NCBI GenBank assembly: GCA_045613865.1
Contig: JAZLBT010000017.1
Span: 19,152-83,151, forward strand
DNA: 64,000 nucleotides
DNA from: Candidatus Spyradenecus sp.
GTDB lineage: Bacteria; Verrucomicrobiota; Kiritimatiellia; RFP12; DVOR01
Direction: 5' to 3'
Shown: in pieces, positions 18,303 through 57,285 of the stretch
Numbering within the stretch: the stretch's first letter is position 1
Layout: the number at the start of each line of letters is the position of its first letter
Program-made: the position numbers and the translations under genes
Notes under the pieces: generated by a model
The model's input: the letters and a program-made list of their open reading frames with translations, nothing else
The model's database searches: none
What the model was told of the DNA's origin: nothing

Positions 18303-19220
18303 TTAACCAATCTTGATATCAGCCTTTTCGCGCAAATCAGCAACATAATTCGAAACCGCTTGTCCACGCGTCGAGTGGAAGAGAAGATTCTGCACCTGAT
18401 CGTGGATTTCTTCCAACGTGGGGGTGTAACCCTGCTTCTCATCTGTCTTAATGATGATGTGATAACCAAACTGCGTTTCAAGAATTTCCGAAACAACATT
18501 CTTCTCGCAAGAGAAAGCAACATCTTCAAAGGGCTTAACCATCATCCCCTTGCCGAACCAACCCAACGAACCACCGTTGGACTTACCACTCGGGCAATCA
18601 GAATGCGCTGTAGCTTCAGCATCAAACGTTGAAGCACCAGAAACAATGCGTTCGCGAATTTCAGCCAACTTTGCCTTCGCCGCTTCCTTACCTTCAGCCG
18701 TGTCATTATTAGGCTTAATGAGAATATGCTGAGCAAGCACCTGATCTTCCGTCTTATAATCATCCTTATGGAGATTGTAGAACTCAGTAATCTCCTCTTC
18801 CGTCGGAGCTGCAACAGAAGCGCAAATCTGGTCAATCAACTTATTAATCTGTGCGCCTTGACGAAGTTCTTCCTTGAAAGATTCAACCGTCATATTTTGA
18901 GCTTCAATCGCCTTGATAAGCTTATCCTTATCGCCACCGAACTGATTGATATAAGTTTCAAACTGAGCATCCAACTCCTCGCCAGAGATTGCAATCTGAA
19001 GACGCTTCGTTTCGTCAATCAATAACTTCGTGCCAATGGCCTGTTCTAAAGCGCGCTGCTGCAAAGTTTCAAGCTGCATGTGAAGTTGAGCTTCAGGCAT
19101 ACCCTGCTGCTGATAAAAATGAATCAAACGCTGCAATTCAAAATCAACCGCCTGCTGAGGAATAGGATCACCATTAACGGTCGCAATAATTTTTTCTTCT
19201 GCCATAACGATACCTTTCAT
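18303..19220 (-). CDS. Peptidyl-prolyl cis-trans isomerase, parvulin (PpiC) type, SurA/PrsA-like
   Basis: Start placed at MKGIVMAEEK within the longer ORF. The C-terminal parvulin domain contains HILIK and GGSLGWFGKGMMVKPFEDVAF. Confidence 0.8.
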   Translation of the reverse strand: MKGIVMAEEKIIATVNGDPIPQQAVDFELQRLIHFYQQQGMPEAQLHMQLETLQQRALEQAIGTKLLIDETKRLQIAISGEELDAQFETYINQFGGDKDKLIKAIEAQNMTVESFKEELRQGAQINKLIDQICASVAAPTEEEITEFYNLHKDDYKTEDQVLAQHILIKPNNDTAEGKEAAKAKLAEIRERIVSGASTFDAEATAHSDCPSGKSNGGSLGWFGKGMMVKPFEDVAFSCEKNVVSEILETQFGYHIIIKTDEKQGYTPTLEEIHDQVQNLLFHSTRGQAVSNYVADLREKADIKIG

Positions 19221-19369
19221 ATAACATATAATAAAATAAATGCGCGAAATTATACCATATAAATAATATAAAGACAAGCGCGAATTAAACACCCCAAAAG
19301 GAGTGGACATTGTAAGTCTCCATGAGGGGAATATACCCTTTGATGAAAGGGACAAATTGTACCCTTTTT

Positions 19370-19452
19370 CAAACCCTATTGATTTGCTCGTCAAACCCTA
19401 TTGATTTGACCTTCAAAACCTATTGATTTCAAACGCAAAACAATAGGGTTTG
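19370..19452. repeat. Array of 4 copies of a 17-nt motif with 22-bp period (3 x CAAACCCTATTGATTTG, then 1 inverted CAAAACAATAGGGTTTG)
   Basis: Read directly. Lies in the 625-bp divergent intergenic region between the PPIase (-) and S8 protease (+) genes. The same motif recurs at 56.7 kb in the opposite orientation. Confidence 0.85.
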
Positions 19453-19518
19453 AAAAACACCCCAAATTCCTCCCATTTCCCAAAGAATTTCGAAGGATTT
19501 GATTTCACTTTTTCAATC

Positions 19519-19594
19519 AATCGTACGATTTCCTAAAATTCTTTAAAATCATTTAGGCAAGCCAAAAAATGTGCCAAGCAAAATATCGTACGAT
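19519..19594. promoter_or_regulatory. Two copies of the palindrome AATCGTACGATT / ATCGTACGAT, candidate operator sites
   Basis: Perfect palindromes at about 19519-19530 and 19585-19594. A degenerate third copy (TAGTACGAAT) lies near 19643. Confidence 0.4.
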
Positions 19595-19966
19595 TTTATT
19601 CATCGGCCAAATAGTTTCCCAAAATATATTTTAAAGAACAAAATAGTACGAATTATACTGTTTTTAAGACATATTTTTACCAGCACAATGTTTTCAAAAT
19701 TAGTTATTCATTTGCAAGAGTTTGCGGTCGGCACAATAGCATACGGCAATATTGAAGGATTTGAGTATTTGATGCGTTGACATCATTTTGATGCCTATCA
19801 GTGTCCAAAAAAGTGGCGATTTGTTTTTTGGGGGATTATTGAGGATGAGGAGTGTTAAGTTGATATTTTGTCATAAAAACAAATTTACTGCGACACAGTC
19901 TTACCTTTTGGGGTGAAATCGGGAAATATAGTCGTGTTTTTATGTTAAAATCCTCTTGGATTTTGT

Positions 19967-19995
19967 TTGAAATGGGGTGGGGGATGTGTTATAGT
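19967..19995 (+). promoter_or_regulatory. Sigma70-type promoter for the S8 peptidase gene
   Basis: TTGAAA, 17-nt spacer, TATAGT. The GGAGGG ribosome-binding site and ATG follow about 25 nt downstream. Confidence 0.5.
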
Positions 19996-20020
19996 GTTTT
20001 AATCTTGTAGAAGGAGGGTC

Positions 20021-22387
20021 ATGTTCGGACGACGAGGGTTATTTTTCTGTGGTTTAGTGGTGGCAGCGATGGGTGTTGTCATCGGGTGGGGTGTTGTTTT
20101 TTCTTCGTCGCGTCGAGTAGTTTATTGTGCGCCAAAGGTGGTGGAGGGGAATGTATATGATCGTTTGGCGGAGTCGGACGAGGGGGTAAAGGTAGCATTG
20201 GCAGGGTGCCGACCGTTTGTGGAGGAGGTGTCAAAGGTGGCAGTGTTGTCGCGGAATCGTTTGGTGGCGCGGTGTGTGGTGGCAGCGCCAGAGGAGGCGG
20301 TTGAGGTCGCGGTTTTTTGTAAGGATTTAGAGGCTGTTGCGCAGGTGTTGTCGGGGTTGCCGATGTTGGTGGCTTCGGCGCAGGAGCCGTTGGTATTAAA
20401 GGGGCGTGTGGAATGTGGGATGTTGTTGCCGTTTTTGCAGCAGCCACCAAAGGGAGTGTTGGGGATTGAGGAGCAGGGAACGTTGCGTCTTTATAATGCG
20501 GTGGCCTCGGGGCCGCGTTTTGTTGGAACGGCATCACATGTGTTGCCGTCGATGCAGGGGTTGGGGAGTTTTGGATTGGATGGCTCAGGCGAGATTGTCG
20601 CGGTGATTGATACGGGGATTTGTTCGGGGGTATTTGAACAAGATTTTCATGTTGATTTGAAGGCGGGGCTTTATGGGATGGTGGCGGAGCCTTCGTCGAG
20701 TAGGGATGTGCCGGTGGATTTGGATGGGCATGGCACGCATGTTTGTGGGTCGATTATTTCGCGAGGATCGCAGTATGCGCAGACGCGTGGGGGTGCACAG
20801 GGCGCACGGTTGTATATGCAGGGGATTGGCGCGGGTTATGCTGGTGGGATAGATTTGCTCTCGGAGGTGAATGTTCATTTTGAGCGAAGTGCATTGATGG
20901 GGGCAAAGATTGTTTCAAATTCATGGGGGAATAATGTTCCAGGGAAGATGTATAGCTCTGGAGGCTATACAGTATATACTTCGCGATTGGATCAGTTTGT
21001 ATGGAATAATCCTGAGATGCTTGTGTTGTTTGCCACGGGAAATGATGGTAAGGATAATAATGGGGATGGTTTAGCGGATGCAAAGACGGTCATCAGTGCT
21101 GAGAATTATGCAAAGAATGTGTTAATTGTAGGGGCACAAGAGTCTTTTAGCACAACGTCAACGGCGACGTATGGAATGGGTTTTTCTTCGCATCAACAGA
21201 TTTATTCGGATTTGATGGCGTATCCGTATGATGGGGTACATGATGGGATGGCGGCGTTTTCTTCGCAAGGCCCACTTGTGGATGGACGTGTGTCACCGAT
21301 GATTGTTGCACCAGGGACGGAGATTGCCTCAACGTATTATGATTATGATACTTCGTATCTCGGAACGGCATTAAGCTCTGGAACATCGATGTCAACGCCT
21401 TTGGTGGCTGCGGCCGCGACGGTGTTGCGTCAGTATTTGCGAGAATATCATGCGCTTTCACGGCCAACGGCGGCATTGTTGCGTGCGGGGTTGGTGCTTT
21501 GTTCGGATTCGCTTTATCCAGGACAGTATGTGGGCGAGATACCGCAGGTGTCGCCAAACAGTGTTGAAGGGTGGGGTGCGCTTCACCTTGGGAAGCATTT
21601 GGCGGGGATTGATCGTGATGGAACGACGCAGATGCCAATGACTTTTGGGTTTAAGGATCGAATTGTGTTGGAGACGGCGGGCGCATCAACGTCGTTTACT
21701 TTCACAACGGATGAGGTTGGCGAAGTGCGAGTGGTGCTTTCGTGGATTGATTATCCGGATGTGGATGCTGCTTCTCAACCGCTCGTGAATGATTATAATC
21801 TCTCGGTTACGGATCCAACAGGGGTGGAGTATACGCTTGAGGATCATTTGAATCCAATTGAGCGTATTATTATAAAGGAAGGTGTTGTTGGCACGTATAC
21901 GGTGAAGGTAAGTGCGAGTAAGATTGGTCAGACGGGAACGGGAAATCTTGCTGCGCTTGCATGGTCGGCAAAGACGGCAGAGGCACCGATTGTGTTTCAG
22001 GCGCCTGTTGTTGCAACGAATACGGCGACGCTTGAGGTCCGGTTGCCGGAGGGGGCCGTGGCATATAAGGATTATCCTGTTTGGCCAGCGCCAGGGCAAC
22101 ATCTTTTTGGGGTTGGGAAGAAGATTGCCCCGATGGCAGGCCCGAAGCTTGGTTATTCGGCGTACACGAAGCATATTGTGACGCCTTTAGCGGGGTGGAT
22201 TTTATTTGATGCAAAAGGGCGACCGGTGCGGCAGCACTTTTCACAACGAGAGATGGTCACGCTTGCCTCTGGTGGTACGTTGGAAGGCGCGATTCTTCCT
22301 CCTGAAAAACCGCTTCTTCTTGAGCAAGGGTGGTACACGTTGCAGTGGTATACAACCTTTCCTGGGTATGGATTACAATTGGAATAA
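20021..22387 (+). CDS. Secreted subtilisin-like serine peptidase (S8 family) with long N-terminal region
   Basis: 788 aa. Asp/His/Ser triad motifs VIDTGI, HGTHVCGS, GTSMSTP. N-terminal signal/transmembrane segment, then about 150 aa that are rich in Val, Ala and Gly before the catalytic domain. Confidence 0.85.
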   Translation: MFGRRGLFFCGLVVAAMGVVIGWGVVFSSSRRVVYCAPKVVEGNVYDRLAESDEGVKVALAGCRPFVEEVSKVAVLSRNRLVARCVVAAPEEAVEVAVFCKDLEAVAQVLSGLPMLVASAQEPLVLKGRVECGMLLPFLQQPPKGVLGIEEQGTLRLYNAVASGPRFVGTASHVLPSMQGLGSFGLDGSGEIVAVIDTGICSGVFEQDFHVDLKAGLYGMVAEPSSSRDVPVDLDGHGTHVCGSIISRGSQYAQTRGGAQGARLYMQGIGAGYAGGIDLLSEVNVHFERSALMGAKIVSNSWGNNVPGKMYSSGGYTVYTSRLDQFVWNNPEMLVLFATGNDGKDNNGDGLADAKTVISAENYAKNVLIVGAQESFSTTSTATYGMGFSSHQQIYSDLMAYPYDGVHDGMAAFSSQGPLVDGRVSPMIVAPGTEIASTYYDYDTSYLGTALSSGTSMSTPLVAAAATVLRQYLREYHALSRPTAALLRAGLVLCSDSLYPGQYVGEIPQVSPNSVEGWGALHLGKHLAGIDRDGTTQMPMTFGFKDRIVLETAGASTSFTFTTDEVGEVRVVLSWIDYPDVDAASQPLVNDYNLSVTDPTGVEYTLEDHLNPIERIIIKEGVVGTYTVKVSASKIGQTGTGNLAALAWSAKTAEAPIVFQAPVVATNTATLEVRLPEGAVAYKDYPVWPAPGQHLFGVGKKIAPMAGPKLGYSAYTKHIVTPLAGWILFDAKGRPVRQHFSQREMVTLASGGTLEGAILPPEKPLLLEQGWYTLQWYTTFPGYGLQLE

Positions 22388-22877: not shown

Positions 22878-23558
22878 GTGCCCCTGCGCATCGACGTGCT
22901 CACGATCTTCCCTGGCATGCTGCAAGGCTTTGTCAGCGAAAGTATCTTACGCCGAGCGATTGCCATGGGCGCTGTAGACATTCACGCGGTTGATTTGCGC
23001 GATTTTGCGCATGACGCCCGTGGGACACTTGATGATAAACCTTACGGTGGTGGCGCCGGCATGTTGATGAAGCCGGAACCTCTCTTCGAAGCAATCGAGA
23101 GTTTACGTCAGCCGAATACAAAGGTTATCGTTATGTCCCCTCAAGGACAGCCCTTTCGCCAAGAAACGGCGAAACGTTTGGCAGGAGAAGAGCATCTCCT
23201 TTTCGTTTGTGGCCACTATGAAGGCATTGACGAACGTGTTCTTGAGTCACATGCAGATGAGTTGCTGAGTATTGGCGATTACGTCCTTACGAATGGCGCA
23301 CTTCCTGCAGCTGTCATTATTGATAGCGTCACCCGACTCCTTCCTGGAGTGCTTGGTGGAGGCGCAGAAGCAACCGCAAAGGAATCCTTCTCAAACGGAC
23401 TCCTTGAACAGGCCCAATACACACGCCCACCCGTTTATCGCGGAAAAGGCGTACCCGAGGTCCTCCTCAATGGCGACCATGCTCGAATGGAACAGTGGCG
23501 CCAAAACCAGATGATTGATCGAACAGCTCGTCATCGCCCCGATTTGATACAGCATTAA
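22878..23558 (+). CDS. trmD: tRNA (guanine37-N1)-methyltransferase
   Basis: 226 aa. LRIDVLTIFP N-terminus and SPOUT knot motifs. Follows rpsP directly; no rimM lies between them. Confidence 0.93.
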   Translation: MPLRIDVLTIFPGMLQGFVSESILRRAIAMGAVDIHAVDLRDFAHDARGTLDDKPYGGGAGMLMKPEPLFEAIESLRQPNTKVIVMSPQGQPFRQETAKRLAGEEHLLFVCGHYEGIDERVLESHADELLSIGDYVLTNGALPAAVIIDSVTRLLPGVLGGGAEATAKESFSNGLLEQAQYTRPPVYRGKGVPEVLLNGDHARMEQWRQNQMIDRTARHRPDLIQH

Positions 23559-23570
23559 GGAAATACTACA

Positions 23571-23924
23571 ATGATCGCGAAAGCTCTTGAAAAAGTTAAC
23601 GCCATGACGGCAGAGCAAAACCCCAAGAAGCGCCCCGACCTCAAGGTTGGTGACATCGTGCGCGTCTCTGTCAAGATTAAAGAAGGCGACAAGGAACGCG
23701 TCCAGGTTTTCGCTGGCGATGTTATCGCCCGCGATGGCAAGGGCATCACTGAAACCTTCACCGTTCGCCGCATTTCGTTCGGTATCGGTGTTGAGAAGGT
23801 TTTCCCCTTCGCTTCCCCCGCTATCCAGAGCATTGAAGTGACTGGCCACGCTAAGGTTCGTCGCGCTAAGCTCTACTATCTCCGTAGCCGTACCGGTAAG
23901 GCTGCTCGCCTCCGCGCACTCTAA
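23571..23924 (+). CDS. rplS: 50S ribosomal protein L19
   Basis: 117 aa. [32 protein letters not shown] is canonical L19. Confidence 0.96.
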
Positions 23925-23972
23925 TTGTGCGCGCTTTAACGAGCGCTTCATCAGCTACAGACAAATGCCAAT

Positions 23973-24009
23973 CCAAGGGACAACACGTCCTTTGGTTTGG
24001 CTTTTTTTG
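23973..24009 (+). terminator. Rho-independent terminator after rplS
   Basis: CCAAGGGAC / GTCCTTTGG stem with one wobble pair and loop AACAC, followed by TTTGGCTTTTTTTG. Confidence 0.6.
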
Positions 24010-24210
24010 TTGTTCTTATGCAAAGATGGCAAAGGGATTGTGGTGTGATGAAAGGACTGATAACGCTCGTTTTATTTGTATGTAGTAGAGAAAAGAGTGT
24101 GTTTGTTATGTTTTTCAGTGTGTTTTAAGGTGTGCTAGTGGGGGAGAAATGATGTTCCCATTGATTTATCATTGCGGGTAGAGGTTGGTGTTATTGCTTG
24201 TTAGGTGTGG

Positions 24211-24256
24211 GATAGAAAAGAATAGGCATACCGCTGGGGTATGCCTATCTGTTTTC
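24211..24256 (-). terminator. Terminator hairpin downstream of clpB
   Basis: Perfect 9-bp inverted repeat AGGCATACC / GGTATGCCT with loop GCTGG, flanked by T-rich runs on both strands. Confidence 0.6.
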
Positions 24257-24270
24257 TCGTGCGGTGAGCC

Positions 24271-28347: not shown

Positions 28348-29271
28348 TTATCGCCTCGGGAAGCAACGTTTAAATTCGTTGCGAAGATGTTGATCGGAGA
28401 GGTGGGTATAGATTTCCGTCACGCCAACATTCGCGTGCCCAAGAAGTTCGCTAATGTCAATGAGCGGAGCTCCATGGTTGAGGAGGTGTGTTGCAAAGGC
28501 ATGGCGAAGGGTATGTGGTGTTGCATGGGAACCCTCGGGAAGGAAGGCTCTCACGCGTTGACGCAGGAGGGTCGAAAGATGACCGCGATTGAGTTTCTTG
28601 CCACGAACGGAAAGAAAGACGGGCGCATCAAGCGAGAGAAGGTCTGCTGCGCACTCCCCACGTTTGAACTTCTCGGCAAAGGTGTGACGCCATTCAAGAT
28701 AGCGTTGAAGGGCTTTTGCTGCGGGTGGGCCGAAGGGTACAATGCGTTCTTTATTTCCTTTCCCTTGAATGCGGAGCGTGTTGGATTGTTTTTGGATATC
28801 GTGTAGACGAAGATTGATTAACTCTCCGCAACGTAATCCGCATCCATAGAGGACTTCTAGAATTGCACGATCTCGAAGGTCGAGAGGCGTGTCCCCATCA
28901 ACGGCCTCAATGCAAGCAATGAGTTGCTTTTCCTCTAATGTAAAGGGGAGTCGTCGCGGTTGACGCGTGCGAACAAAGGCATCTGTCGGATTGAACGGAA
29001 TGAGCTGCTCATCGAGTAACCATGTGAAGAGCCCACGAATGGACGCCATGTTTCGCGTGAGGGAGGCTTCGGCAAATCCACGCTCATGTAGAAGGTGAAT
29101 ATAGCGGATGAGATGGTCGCGCGTCACACTTTGCCACGTGATAATCTTTTCCTTTTTGAGATACGCGATGAGTTGCAAAAGGTCGTTTTCATATGCATCA
29201 CGGGTTGCTTCTGCAATCCCGCGTGCATATTGAAGATTATCGAGGTAGTGGTGAAGGGTCGCGTTCATCAA
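28348..29271 (-). CDS. xerD: Site-specific tyrosine recombinase XerD/XerC-like
   Basis: 307 aa. Arg-His-Arg-Tyr catalytic residues (HTLRHAFATHLL, LLGHANVGVTEIYTHL) and an Xer-type N-terminal domain. Confidence 0.85.
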   Translation of the reverse strand: MMNATLHHYLDNLQYARGIAEATRDAYENDLLQLIAYLKKEKIITWQSVTRDHLIRYIHLLHERGFAEASLTRNMASIRGLFTWLLDEQLIPFNPTDAFVRTRQPRRLPFTLEEKQLIACIEAVDGDTPLDLRDRAILEVLYGCGLRCGELINLRLHDIQKQSNTLRIQGKGNKERIVPFGPPAAKALQRYLEWRHTFAEKFKRGECAADLLSLDAPVFLSVRGKKLNRGHLSTLLRQRVRAFLPEGSHATPHTLRHAFATHLLNHGAPLIDISELLGHANVGVTEIYTHLSDQHLRNEFKRCFPRR

Positions 29272-35900: not shown

Positions 35901-36071
35901 GTAAAGGAATGCGAATAAGATATCATACCGCAAAATAAAATGCAAGTACTTTTTTAACCCAACCAATAAAATTCTCATTTTGAGCATAAATTATCGTTTA
36001 ATAATCCATTGCTTCCCTCTGCTAAGCACCCCATTAAAAACACCTAAAATCAAACGTAGGTTAAATGAAAT

Positions 36072-36203
36072 TCATTTAGGTACGGTTTGATTGTCATTTA
36101 GGTGCTGTTTGAACGTCATTTAGGTGCTGTTTGATTCTCGTTTAGGTGCTGTTTGAACGTCATTTAGGTGCTGTTTGATTCTCGTTTAGATGCTGTTTGA
36201 TAA
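36072..36203. repeat. 6 contiguous tandem copies of a 22-bp unit TC(A/G)TTTAGGTGCTGTTTGA(ACG/TTC)
   Basis: Read directly. Variants alternate between GAACG and GATTC ends. No spacers, so it is not a CRISPR array. An inverted half-site (CACCTAAA) sits just upstream at about 36047. Confidence 0.9.
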
Positions 36204-56667: not shown

Positions 56668-56757
56668 TCAAATCAATAGGTTTTGATCGTCAAATCAATA
56701 GGGTTTTGATCGTCAAATCAATAGGGTTTGGACTTCAAAACAATAGGGTTTACTTTT
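56668..56757. repeat. Array of 4 tandem copies (22-23 bp period) of TCAAATCAATAGGGTTT, same family as the 19.4 kb array but in the opposite orientation
   Basis: Read directly. One copy lacks a G and the last is TCAAAACAATAGGGTTT. Solitary copies occur at about 56925 (CAATAGGGTTTGAAAAG) and about 57664 (TAATAGGGTGAAAAAC). Confidence 0.85.
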
Positions 56758-57256
56758 TCAACTGATTGCACCATGGGCGAGCGAGAACCTCATTTGCCTA
56801 ACATATTGCCGTGTCAATCATTCCGTACCATCTGTTTTCGTGTCGGAAATTGGCAGTAGAAAATTGCGTGGATTGTACTATTCCTGCCACTCTAAAATTA
56901 GTACAAAATATGACAAATTGATGCAATAGGGTTTGAAAAGACTATAAAATGGCAATAAAAGTGGTGGTATTTATGGTCACCTTTTTATAAAACCGATGGG
57001 TTGGCACAACGCGTGTTTTTCGAGATTTGTATTGTTTTTGAGGTGAGATTTGATGGAGTCATTTTTATGCTATGAGAGCGATTTGGGTGAATTGTTTTTG
57101 CGATCAAATGAATTCATTTTCTACTGCAAGGTTCTGTGTTTTTAATATTAAAGATAAGGTGTAACGAAAAGAGTGATGTTCATCACGAATAGTTGCATAA
57201 GTGGGAGAATGCGGCGTGGGTTTCTTGAATAAAAACTAGAAAAATAAAAAAAGTGC

Positions 57257-57285
57257 TTGCATGGTATAGTGGGATTTGTTATACT
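57257..57285 (+). promoter_or_regulatory. Sigma70-type promoter of tRNA-Ser
   Basis: TTGCAT, 17-nt spacer, TATACT. About 20 nt upstream of the tRNA 5' end. Confidence 0.6.

Follow-up and report, generated by a model that had tools for sequence, protein, structure and literature searches.

Phased 22-bp repeat arrays upstream of predicted promoters in a Kiritimatiellia chromosome: candidate sites for a DNA-binding protein

Array 1 between the PPIase and S8 protease genes

The repeat array considered here, called array 1, lies in a long spacer between two divergently transcribed genes, one for a PPIC-type peptidyl-prolyl isomerase (PPIase) on the − strand and one for a secreted protease of the Peptidase_S8 family on the + strand, just as an earlier, sequence-only reading of the DNA had described them (Table 1). 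The length of 625 bp given there for the spacer has to be corrected to 815 bp (19206-20020), with the PPIase gene starting at the ATG at 19205. The longest open reading frame of this gene begins at a TTG at 19394 and would overlap the array, but since the homologues are 297-300 amino acids long, the ATG and not the TTG must be the start. A gene call made from the longest frame is hence wrong and runs into array 1.

Both genes have predicted promoters, and it should be pointed out that all promoters discussed in this work are predictions from consensus. The −10 region and the discriminator of the PPIase promoter are kept in relatives, as a TATAAT/TATATT/TATACT block. The edge of the array is located 91 bp upstream of the predicted −35 hexamer of the PPIase gene and about 515 bp upstream of that of the S8 gene, which means that it overlaps neither core promoter.

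Array 1 (19369-19453) consists of four motif copies in a strict 22-bp register, with starts at 19370, 19392, 19414 and 19436. Expressed as the 17-mer CAAACCCTATTGATTTG, the first two copies match on the + strand without any mismatch and read TCAAACCCTATTGATTTG, the third matches on the same strand with two mismatches, and the fourth is a reverse-complement copy (19436-19452) with one. When up to three mismatches are allowed, 8 matches are obtained in the window, that is, in the whole 64-kb stretch of DNA that was analysed, to be compared with 0.29 expected, and none of 100 shuffles reaches 8. Tandem Repeats Finder describes the array with a period of 22, 2.8 copies and 89% matches. The motif scan, the inverted-repeat search and Tandem Repeats Finder confirm the earlier description, with three copies in direct orientation and one inverted, all strictly 22 bp apart. 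The view that the array is non-random, non-coding and strictly phased at about two helical turns is supported.

The 17-nt unit that had been proposed is indeed repeated, but a more fitting description is an imperfect palindrome of 19 nt with a free spacer of 3 nt behind it. On the strand reading TCAAATCAATAGGGTTTGA, which defines the motif M1, this palindrome is TCAAAT-CAATAGG-GTTTGA, where the arms TCAAAT and GTTTGA flank the asymmetric 7-nt centre CAATAGG. The core positions 1-19 are identical in 6-8 of the eight M1 units found in arrays 1 and 2 (see below for the latter), while the three spacer positions agree in just 3-4 of the eight and look random. With the core conserved and the spacer free, the constraint acts on a 19-nt recognition element and not on a 22-nt duplication unit. 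The contrast between core and spacer fits sites recognised by a protein, and to this extent the suggested signature of a protein-binding array can be retained; an operator private to this gene pair and iterons cannot, as will be seen.

The consensus sequences of CtsR, CIRCE, HAIR, FNR/CRP, the ARG box and the Pho box were compared with the motif, and none of them fits. Another option considered was a sigma-70 promoter inside the units. However, the hexamer spacings available in a 22-bp unit are unsuitable, and the promoter scan places none in array 1.

The outermost copies of array 1 form a 23-nt inverted repeat (19365-19387 / 19435-19457) that is 96% complementary, and units c4 and c3 together constitute a palindrome with an 18-bp stem. 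Because of the 23-nt inverted repeat, the array as single-stranded DNA forms a strong hairpin of −23.7 kcal/mol (z = −9.3). The inverted copy is also the reason why Rfam, at permissive E-values, matches the array to hairpin models of plant and animal miRNAs; these matches are far below the thresholds, and array 1 was rejected as a member of an RNA family. At the gathering threshold, Rfam finds two tRNAs in the window and nothing else.

Table 1. Coordinates of the genes, predicted promoters and repeat units
Feature	Coordinates	Strand	Description
SurA-like PPIC-type peptidyl-prolyl isomerase gene	18303..19205	-	first gene of the PPIase-tex-dus block
Predicted PPIase promoter	19249..19277	-	TTGTCT, 17-nt spacer, TG-TATAAT
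Array 1, unit c1	19369..19387	-	M1 core GCAAATCAATAGGGTTTGA; nearest the PPIase promoter; left arm of the 23-nt terminal inverted repeat
Array 1, unit c2	19391..19409	-	TCAAATCAATAGGGTTTGA, the canonical M1 core
Array 1, unit c3	19413..19431	-	TGAAATCAATAGGTTTTGA; G14T variant, also in the first unit of array 2
Array 1, unit c4	19435..19453	+	inverted copy GCAAAACAATAGGGTTTGA; T6A variant, also in the fourth unit of array 2
Predicted S8 protease promoter	19967..19995	+	TTGAAA, 17-nt spacer, TG-TATAGT
Peptidase_S8 (subtilase) gene	20021..22387	+	hydrophobic N-terminus
Array 3	36050..36200	+	sister family M3 TCATTTAGGTGCTGTTTGA; between tRNA-Ala and a GFO/IDH/MocA oxidoreductase gene
Array 2	56668..56753	+	four M1 units, all direct, periods 22/23/22; between rarA and tRNA-Ser
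Lone M1 half-copy	56921..56939	+	CAATAGGGTTTGAAAA; matches the outer end of array 1 at 16/16 positions

Arrays 2 and 3 and the chromosomal setting

The motif is not confined to the PPIase/S8 spacer. The other four of the eight window matches (56669-56752) make up array 2, which the sequence-only reading had not connected with array 1. Array 2 is situated upstream of rarA, about 115-130 bp from the putative promoter of this gene. Array 3 is built from a sister family, M3, that has 11 of 19 positions in common with M1, the TCA...GTTTGA frame included. An inverted-arm unit (36050-36068) is here followed by six direct units (36072-36200), all in the 22-bp register and with a 44-bp higher-order repeat, and the array is located about 105 bp from the predicted −35 of the tRNA-Ala gene and about 115 bp from that of the GFO-family gene. 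The M1 and M3 units are the only notably repeated 11-mers of the window, and all of them, that is, eight M1 units, the lone M1 half-copy and seven M3 units, are intergenic. With the same motif 37 kb away and a sister family in array 3, array 1 is not an operator private to the PPIase/S8 pair. The sequence-only reading had named REP-like dispersal as the finding that would count against it, and the motif is in fact dispersed, but its copies prefer DNA upstream of promoters.

Arrays 1 and 2 are paralogous. They have in common a three-unit block that begins with the G14T unit (88.5% over 61 nt), and the fourth unit is in both cases a T6A variant. The identical order of variant units shows that the two arrays are copies of one element and not independently evolved sites. 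A BLAST comparison of the three array-bearing spacers of the window yields the repeat units only, with no common leader or tail. Array 2 has neither a terminal inverted repeat nor a long palindrome (z = −2.9), and the search for a target-site duplication gave a single candidate, an offset ACCC beside array 1, and no clean 5-bp duplication. The layout of several direct units and one inverted unit is also reminiscent of the ends of Tn7/Mu-type transposons. This candidate was rejected, since TG is present at one side only, a clean 5-bp duplication is lacking and the window contains no transposase genes.

We now consider the surroundings of the arrays. The window is core chromosome, with rpsG, uvrD, mutS, clpB, a penicillin-binding transpeptidase gene, hemB, trmD and kdsA, and further with genes for an LptA-like protein, HPr kinase, a PEP-utilising (PtsI-like) enzyme and a XerC/D-like recombinase (28348-29271). 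The database proteins that its products match bear the names Kiritimatiellae or Kiritimatiellia, and one of them Candidatus Spyradenecus. Among the Pfam matches of its genes there is no transposase (Y1 included), transcription factor, rep or par gene, and the window encodes no regulator besides the XerC/D-like recombinase. Its intergenic DNA amounts to 6709 bp, and the three arrays lie in the three long divergent (5'-5') spacers, with none in the convergent ones. The genes beside the arrays are functionally mixed (PPIase/S8, rarA/tRNA-Ser and tRNA-Ala/oxidoreductase). We rejected the idea of an integrative element at tRNA genes, as the arrays lie 5' of both tRNAs and the neighbours are housekeeping genes.

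Direct repeats of 17-22 bp in a 22-bp register, together with an inverted copy, are the architecture of an iteron origin, and iterons of a replication origin had been proposed for array 1; a plasmid-type centromere or handcuffing site was considered along with them. However, rep and par genes are absent from the neighbourhood, where all genes are chromosomal housekeeping ones, the same motif is present at two loci 37 kb apart with a sister array between them, and one relative (L087, see below) has three arrays in 21 kb. Furthermore, DnaA boxes are absent near the arrays, with 7 matches in the window against 14 expected, and the GC skew is positive over the whole window without a switch. This explanation is so improbable that we reject it. 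The skew and the DnaA boxes were also the grounds on which a chromosomal replication origin or terminus was dismissed.

A different proposal is that each unit is the core site of a tyrosine recombinase, and that the arrays mediate inversions and other rearrangements between loci. The core sites of lox, FRT, dif and att have an arm-centre-arm geometry, and the M1 unit, with its 6-bp inverted arms around an asymmetric 7-nt centre, resembles them. Arrays 1 and 2 are mutually inverted, with the three-unit block in opposite orientations at the two loci, and the polarity of the units is likewise flipped between the window and the relative L097. All three arrays sit at breaks of gene order relative to the relatives, and the window has the XerC/D-like gene. 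On the other hand, tandem cores 22 bp apart cannot synapse with each other, and the tandem repetition would have no obvious use. Gene order is poorly kept throughout these genomes, so that one would expect breaks at the borders of operons in any case, the Xer-like gene is of an ordinary housekeeping type, and there is no direct sign of alternative orientations within one population. We therefore regard a role as recombination sites as very unlikely.

Arrays in related Kiritimatiellia

The relatives were sampled as contigs around homologues of the flanking proteins (labelled L053-L098). The arrays are enriched in this lineage: about 160 kb of Kiritimatiellia DNA contains 10 arrays whose period is exactly 22 bp, compared to none in a control of 385 kb from 52 unrelated genomes treated with the same criteria. 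Four genomes, with GC contents of 47-66%, have this period in arrays whose sequences are unrelated. Each of the tRNA genes sampled from Kiritimatiellia (3/3) is preceded by a spacer with an array, and at about nine loci the array edge lies 75-141 bp upstream of a consensus-predicted −35 hexamer.

The array at the PPIase locus is conserved in one distant relative, L097 (PPIase 76% identical, 49% GC), where one inverted and three direct TCAAACCTATCTGTTTTGA units, a motif one indel pair apart from M1, are found between dfp and the PPIase gene. The units are at 2873, 2895, 2917 and 2939, again in a strict 22-bp register, with 114 bp between the end of the array and the PPIase −35 downstream of it. 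Outside the arrays, the PPIase spacers of L097 and the window give only two 10-nt BLAST matches (E about 0.26), which is no significant similarity, and the polarity of the units relative to the PPIase gene is opposite in the two genomes.

The contigs L055 and L056 (PPIase 77% identical) open within a run of TCAAAT-N9-ATTTGA units in 22-bp register, about 345 bp before the PPIase gene. In L053 and L057, the PPIase protein (P0003) is identical to theirs, dfp lies 150 bp upstream of the gene, and there is no array. Homology between the array-bearing and the array-free forms begins about 80 bp upstream of the PPIase ATG. An identical PPIase with the array either present or absent makes the array look dispensable and apparently polymorphic.

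Three 22-bp CTCCGCCGAGGTYGAG arrays are present in 20.9 kb of L087 (GCA_965341595.1, 66% GC, PPIase 73% identical). One precedes the PPIase gene, one precedes tatD, and the third separates a tRNA-synthetase gene from pyrF; each has several direct units and one inverted unit. In L094 (GCA_965336485.1, 56% GC, RarA 82% identical), 18 kb of sequence contains two array loci of three 22-bp GAGATACGSCGTATCTC palindrome units each. These units adjoin a common GC-rich module of alternating purines and pyrimidines, and the composite element is found in opposite orientations at its two loci, both of which are divergent spacers; one of them is about 120 bp upstream of the tRNA-Val −35. In L094 as well as in L087, a conserved non-repeat module (about 80% over 120 bp) accompanies the array, in either orientation.

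The contigs L077-L086 (ten assemblies, about 21 kb of one locus), L093, L095, L096 and L098 gave no arrays, and the DNA upstream of the PPIase gene has none in L053, L077 and L098. The GFO promoter is kept in L095 and L096 (85-88% identical) without an array, and rarA in L093 and L094 (82-86% identical) is preceded by a short co-directional spacer from which the array is absent. An empty-site comparison for array 3 defined no insertion boundaries, as the DNA is homologous to L095 and L096 only from the GFO promoter onwards. Contigs assembled from short reads end in or beside the arrays.

The motif is wholly different between related genera. A motif specific to each genus would not normally be expected of an orthologous transcription factor. 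An exact scan for TCAAATCAATAGGGTTTK in 185,579 species genomes returned 52 single matches in unrelated taxa, which is at chance level, and no arrays; the source species is accordingly not part of the collection scanned. A two-copy pattern retrieved 15 unrelated minisatellites from the JGI metagenomes, and viral contigs gave five single chance matches for M1 and none for M3. A literature search found no description of 22-bp arrays of this kind upstream of promoters.

It is also conceivable that the arrays are neutral minisatellites with no sequence-specific partner, produced by local slippage of short palindromes and tolerated in long spacers, or acting through DNA structure only, as cruciforms or curvature under negative supercoiling between divergent promoters. 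The hairpin of array 1 and the position of the arrays between divergent promoters would agree with this, as would the Z-DNA-prone alternating purine/pyrimidine tract next to the L094 array and the signature of slippage in array 3. However, independent slippage would not yield the same 19-mer at two loci or in L097, array 2 lacks a long palindrome, and a free spacer next to a conserved core is left unexplained. An exact 22-bp period with unrelated sequences in four genomes would, moreover, need some common constraint. We consider this scenario highly improbable.

Candidate protein sites, a selfish repeat, and known systems

The explanation that we favour, tentatively and at somewhat less than an even chance, is that array 1 is a phased array of binding sites for a putative dimeric protein, with a role at promoters, and one locus of a multi-locus family of such arrays found across the lineage. 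Each 22-bp unit would be bound by one dimer of a sequence-specific DNA-binding protein. As the register corresponds to about 2.1 helical turns, successive dimers would be placed on roughly one face of the helix, and at least three of them may bind cooperatively, with the single inverted unit creating a long palindrome at the end of the array. Placed some 75-140 bp ahead of the −35 hexamers of housekeeping and tRNA genes, the arrays would most likely have an architectural or activating function from upstream, or insulate divergent promoters from each other, and would not be operators that block RNA polymerase. The copies at separate loci would be linked by duplication or gene conversion, and the palindromic arms might allow blocks to flip.

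Several observations point in this direction. An exact 22-bp period maintained by unrelated sequences (47-66% GC) suggests a common protein whose footprint sets a two-turn ruler. Conserved cores with free 3-nt spacers argue for sequence-specific recognition by a protein, and so do the clustered distances from the −35 elements. The same conclusion is suggested by L097, where motif, layout and position upstream of the PPIase gene are kept even though the flanks cannot be aligned. The dispersal of the family and its location well upstream of the core promoters are what lead us to think of an architectural or activating element, or an insulator, and not of an operator. From this set of observations we infer binding by a protein, binding as a dimer, and an effect on transcription.

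A fixed regulatory role is, on the other hand, disfavoured by the absence of arrays at the orthologous GFO and rarA promoters and by their apparent polymorphism at the PPIase gene, and equally by the mixed neighbour genes, the flipped polarity, the genus-specific motif, the copy relationship of arrays 1 and 2 and the module that travels with the array in L094 and L087. All of these are hallmarks of a mobile or selfish repeat. The main rival explanation, which we hold to be rather unlikely, is a selfish, non-autonomous dispersed repeat with no role for the host, such as a MITE, a REP/BIME element or a BrickBuilt-like minisatellite. The units would then be sites for a transposase, possibly REP-associated, that is encoded elsewhere, copies would have spread into permissive intergenic DNA and would expand by slippage, and any effects on promoters would be incidental. 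There is a precedent for this in the BrickBuilt element of P. gingivalis (PMC4596501).

Such a repeat would account for the multi-copy, dispersed character of the arrays, with two sequence families within 64 kb and an own motif in each genome, for the copying evident from the common variant order of arrays 1 and 2, and for the module that accompanies the arrays of L087 and L094. The 23-nt terminal inverted repeat that bounds array 1 (96% complementary), the slippage indicated by the 44-bp higher-order repeat of array 3, the presence that differs among close relatives and between contigs with identical PPIase, and the short-read contigs that end in or near arrays fit equally well. However, the two M1 arrays have no homology outside the repeats and no leader or tail, array 2 is without a terminal inverted repeat, the offset ACCC beside array 1 is not a convincing target-site duplication, and the window has no transposase. 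The arrays reside in 5', promoter-bearing spacers at similar distances from the −35, and not at the 3' ends typical of REPs. Within the units it is the spacers that have diverged and not the cores, and in L097 an array of this family sits at the corresponding site before the PPIase gene in spite of the unalignable flanks. It is important to realise that the phased-site and the selfish-repeat explanations are compatible, as binding sites of a host protein can reside on an element that is dispersed.

The most novel proposal, which we find doubtful, is an undescribed Kiritimatiellia system in which genome-specific arrays of near-palindromic units in a 22-bp register, about 100 bp upstream of tRNA and housekeeping promoters, would be read by a fast-evolving architectural activator analogous in function to Fis, or by paralogous proteins, with the sites and the protein co-evolving as the sites are copied and homogenised.

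The Kiritimatiellia are uncultured or barely cultured bacteria of gut and sediment, and we know of no work on their transcriptional regulation. Repeats that combine a fixed 22-bp "ruler" with genome-specific sequences and a preference for DNA upstream of tRNA and housekeeping promoters would mark a new family of DNA-binding proteins, which could be a global regulator or the enzyme of a mobile element. If the arrays are merely selfish minisatellites, the finding amounts to an ordinary new repeat family. In practical terms, the arrays break short-read assemblies at operon boundaries.

Finally, the arrays can be compared with known systems. Iteron origins, of which those of pPS10, R6K and RK2 are examples, are similar in having units of 17-22 bp in a 22-bp register, with 3-7 copies and an inverted copy, and in keeping their period from one replicon to the next although the sequences vary. 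The chlamydial plasmid, with four 22-bp repeats, is another example (PMC2820232). The present arrays are different in being chromosomal and multi-locus, and in lacking a Rep gene, DnaA boxes, an AT-rich unwinding element and a skew switch.

REPs alternate in orientation within their clusters, carry a GTAG head, are linked to RAYTs and lie mostly at 3' ends. The units described here are, like REP/BIME/REPIN units, extragenic and multi-copy imperfect palindromes (TCAAAT-N7-GTTTGA), and the two classes are also alike in that the palindromes are short, genome-specific, clustered, found as inverted doublets and probably recognised by a cognate protein. Unlike REPs, the units are direct with one exception, keep a fixed 22-bp register, occur in 5' regions and have no GTAG head.

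BrickBuilt of P. gingivalis is a MITE with a 23-nt minisatellite and 19 intergenic copies (PMC4596501). BrickBuilt and the present arrays are both species-specific minisatellites with units of about 22-23 nt that are dispersed over many strictly intergenic loci in variable copy number, with conserved and non-conserved positions in the unit and a location near promoters, for which effects on transcription have been proposed. BrickBuilt differs in having a conserved leader and tail and IS5-type terminal inverted repeats, whereas the M1 arrays of the window have no common flanks; its units are spacerless, have not been described as palindromic, and do not show the layout of n direct units plus one inverted.

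ARG boxes are 18-bp palindromes with a centre-to-centre distance of 21 bp, and operators of the lambda type are similar tandem palindromes about 3 bp apart. Here, the likeness lies in a palindrome of about 18-19 bp that together with a spacer of about 3 bp gives a two-turn register and cooperative binding on one face of the helix. These operators, however, overlap or adjoin the core promoter, comprise 2-3 boxes and have a motif that is kept across phyla, whereas the present arrays have 4-7 units about 100 bp upstream, with motifs that bear no relation to one another even in related genera.

The Fis sites upstream of the rrn and tRNA promoters of E. coli are degenerate motifs of 15 bp, and Fis is not known outside gammaproteobacteria. 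The present arrays resemble them as several helically phased sites some 60-150 bp upstream of the −35, outside the core promoter, and in the association with tRNA and translation-related promoters. The arrays are tandem, near-identical 19-mers that are genome-specific and variably present, whereas Fis sites are not tandem. Phased arrays of sites and dispersed minisatellites are, each by itself, already known kinds. What is new is the combination of a fixed 22-bp register, near-palindromic units, n direct copies plus one inverted, a genome-specific sequence, and a position upstream of promoters, those of tRNA genes included.

Start of the PPIase gene and palindromes 5' of the S8 protease gene

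In the public annotation the SurA-like PPIase of the window (P0001) has 335 aa, while the longest open reading frame, which starts at a TTG, has 363 aa and would extend into array 1, the four 22-bp-register units between the PPIase and S8 protease genes. Since the homologues measure 297-300 aa, the likely start is instead an ATG (see table for positions), and both calls begin 5' of it.

The non-coding DNA that runs from array 1 to the promoter of the S8 protease gene also contains two perfect copies of a 10-bp palindrome, ATCGTACGAT, located 65 bp apart and each enclosed in a common 12-nt sequence, ATCGTACGATTT. A degenerate third copy, ATAGTACGAAT, is found in the same DNA ca 60 bp beyond the second, and no further mismatch-free ATCGTACGAT occurs elsewhere in the window. 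The palindromes may constitute an operator set for the S8 gene.

Positions of the features (window coordinates unless a contig is named)
Feature	Position	Strand
PPIase, likely ATG start	19205
PPIase, TTG of longest frame	19394
Stretch 5' of the likely start covered by the longest PPIase frame	19206-19394
ATCGTACGAT, first copy	19520-19529
ATCGTACGAT, second copy	19585-19594
ATAGTACGAAT variant	near 19644-19654
TTGTCGAACGTTGTTGGGCCTTTTAGGATGTTG duplication	699-768
trmD-clpB gap	23559-24270
Long frame of this gap	23391-23951	-
AAAAAAGTRCTTGCAT, first copy	35940-35955	-
AAAAAAGTRCTTGCAT, second copy	57247-57262	+
Array 2-tRNA-Ser spacer	56753-57256
Terminator-like hairpin	56963-56990
Alternating tract, L094	1895-1995; 13300-13355

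tRNA promoters and other intergenic regions

Both tRNA genes share a promoter-upstream block, AAAAAAGTRCTTGCAT, in which an UP element-like A-tract is followed by the -35 hexamer TTGCAT. The spacer of ca 500 bp that separates array 2 from the tRNA-Ser promoter has only open reading frames of at most 43 aa, and it holds a lone half-copy of M1, the near-palindromic array motif, as well as a terminator-like hairpin with a T-run. This spacer may be a small RNA locus.

Elsewhere, a 33-bp unit is perfectly duplicated in tandem (TTGTCGAACGTTGTTGGGCCTTTTAGGATGTTG; 2.1 copies) directly 3' of the rpsG terminator and 5' of uvrD. The convergent trmD and clpB genes are separated by a 712-bp gap, whose sole long open reading frame (186 aa) has no Pfam match.

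Array-linked sequence and contig ends in relatives

In L094, a contig of a Kiritimatiellia relative (GCA_965336485.1), a GC-rich, Z-DNA-prone tract in which purines and pyrimidines alternate, GCTAGGCGCGCGCGTG...CGCACGTACG..., is joined to the 22-bp array at two loci, between which the orientation of the composite element is opposite.

Four independent Logan assemblies (L058-L061) of a relative with 83% PPIase identity all have their 5' ends at a GC-rich hairpin, ca 140 bp 5' of the PPIase gene, and in two assemblies (L055 and L056) of a relative with 77% identity the 5' ends fall within a 22-bp array. Short-read assemblies appear to be repeatedly broken by the repeats 5' of the PPIase gene.
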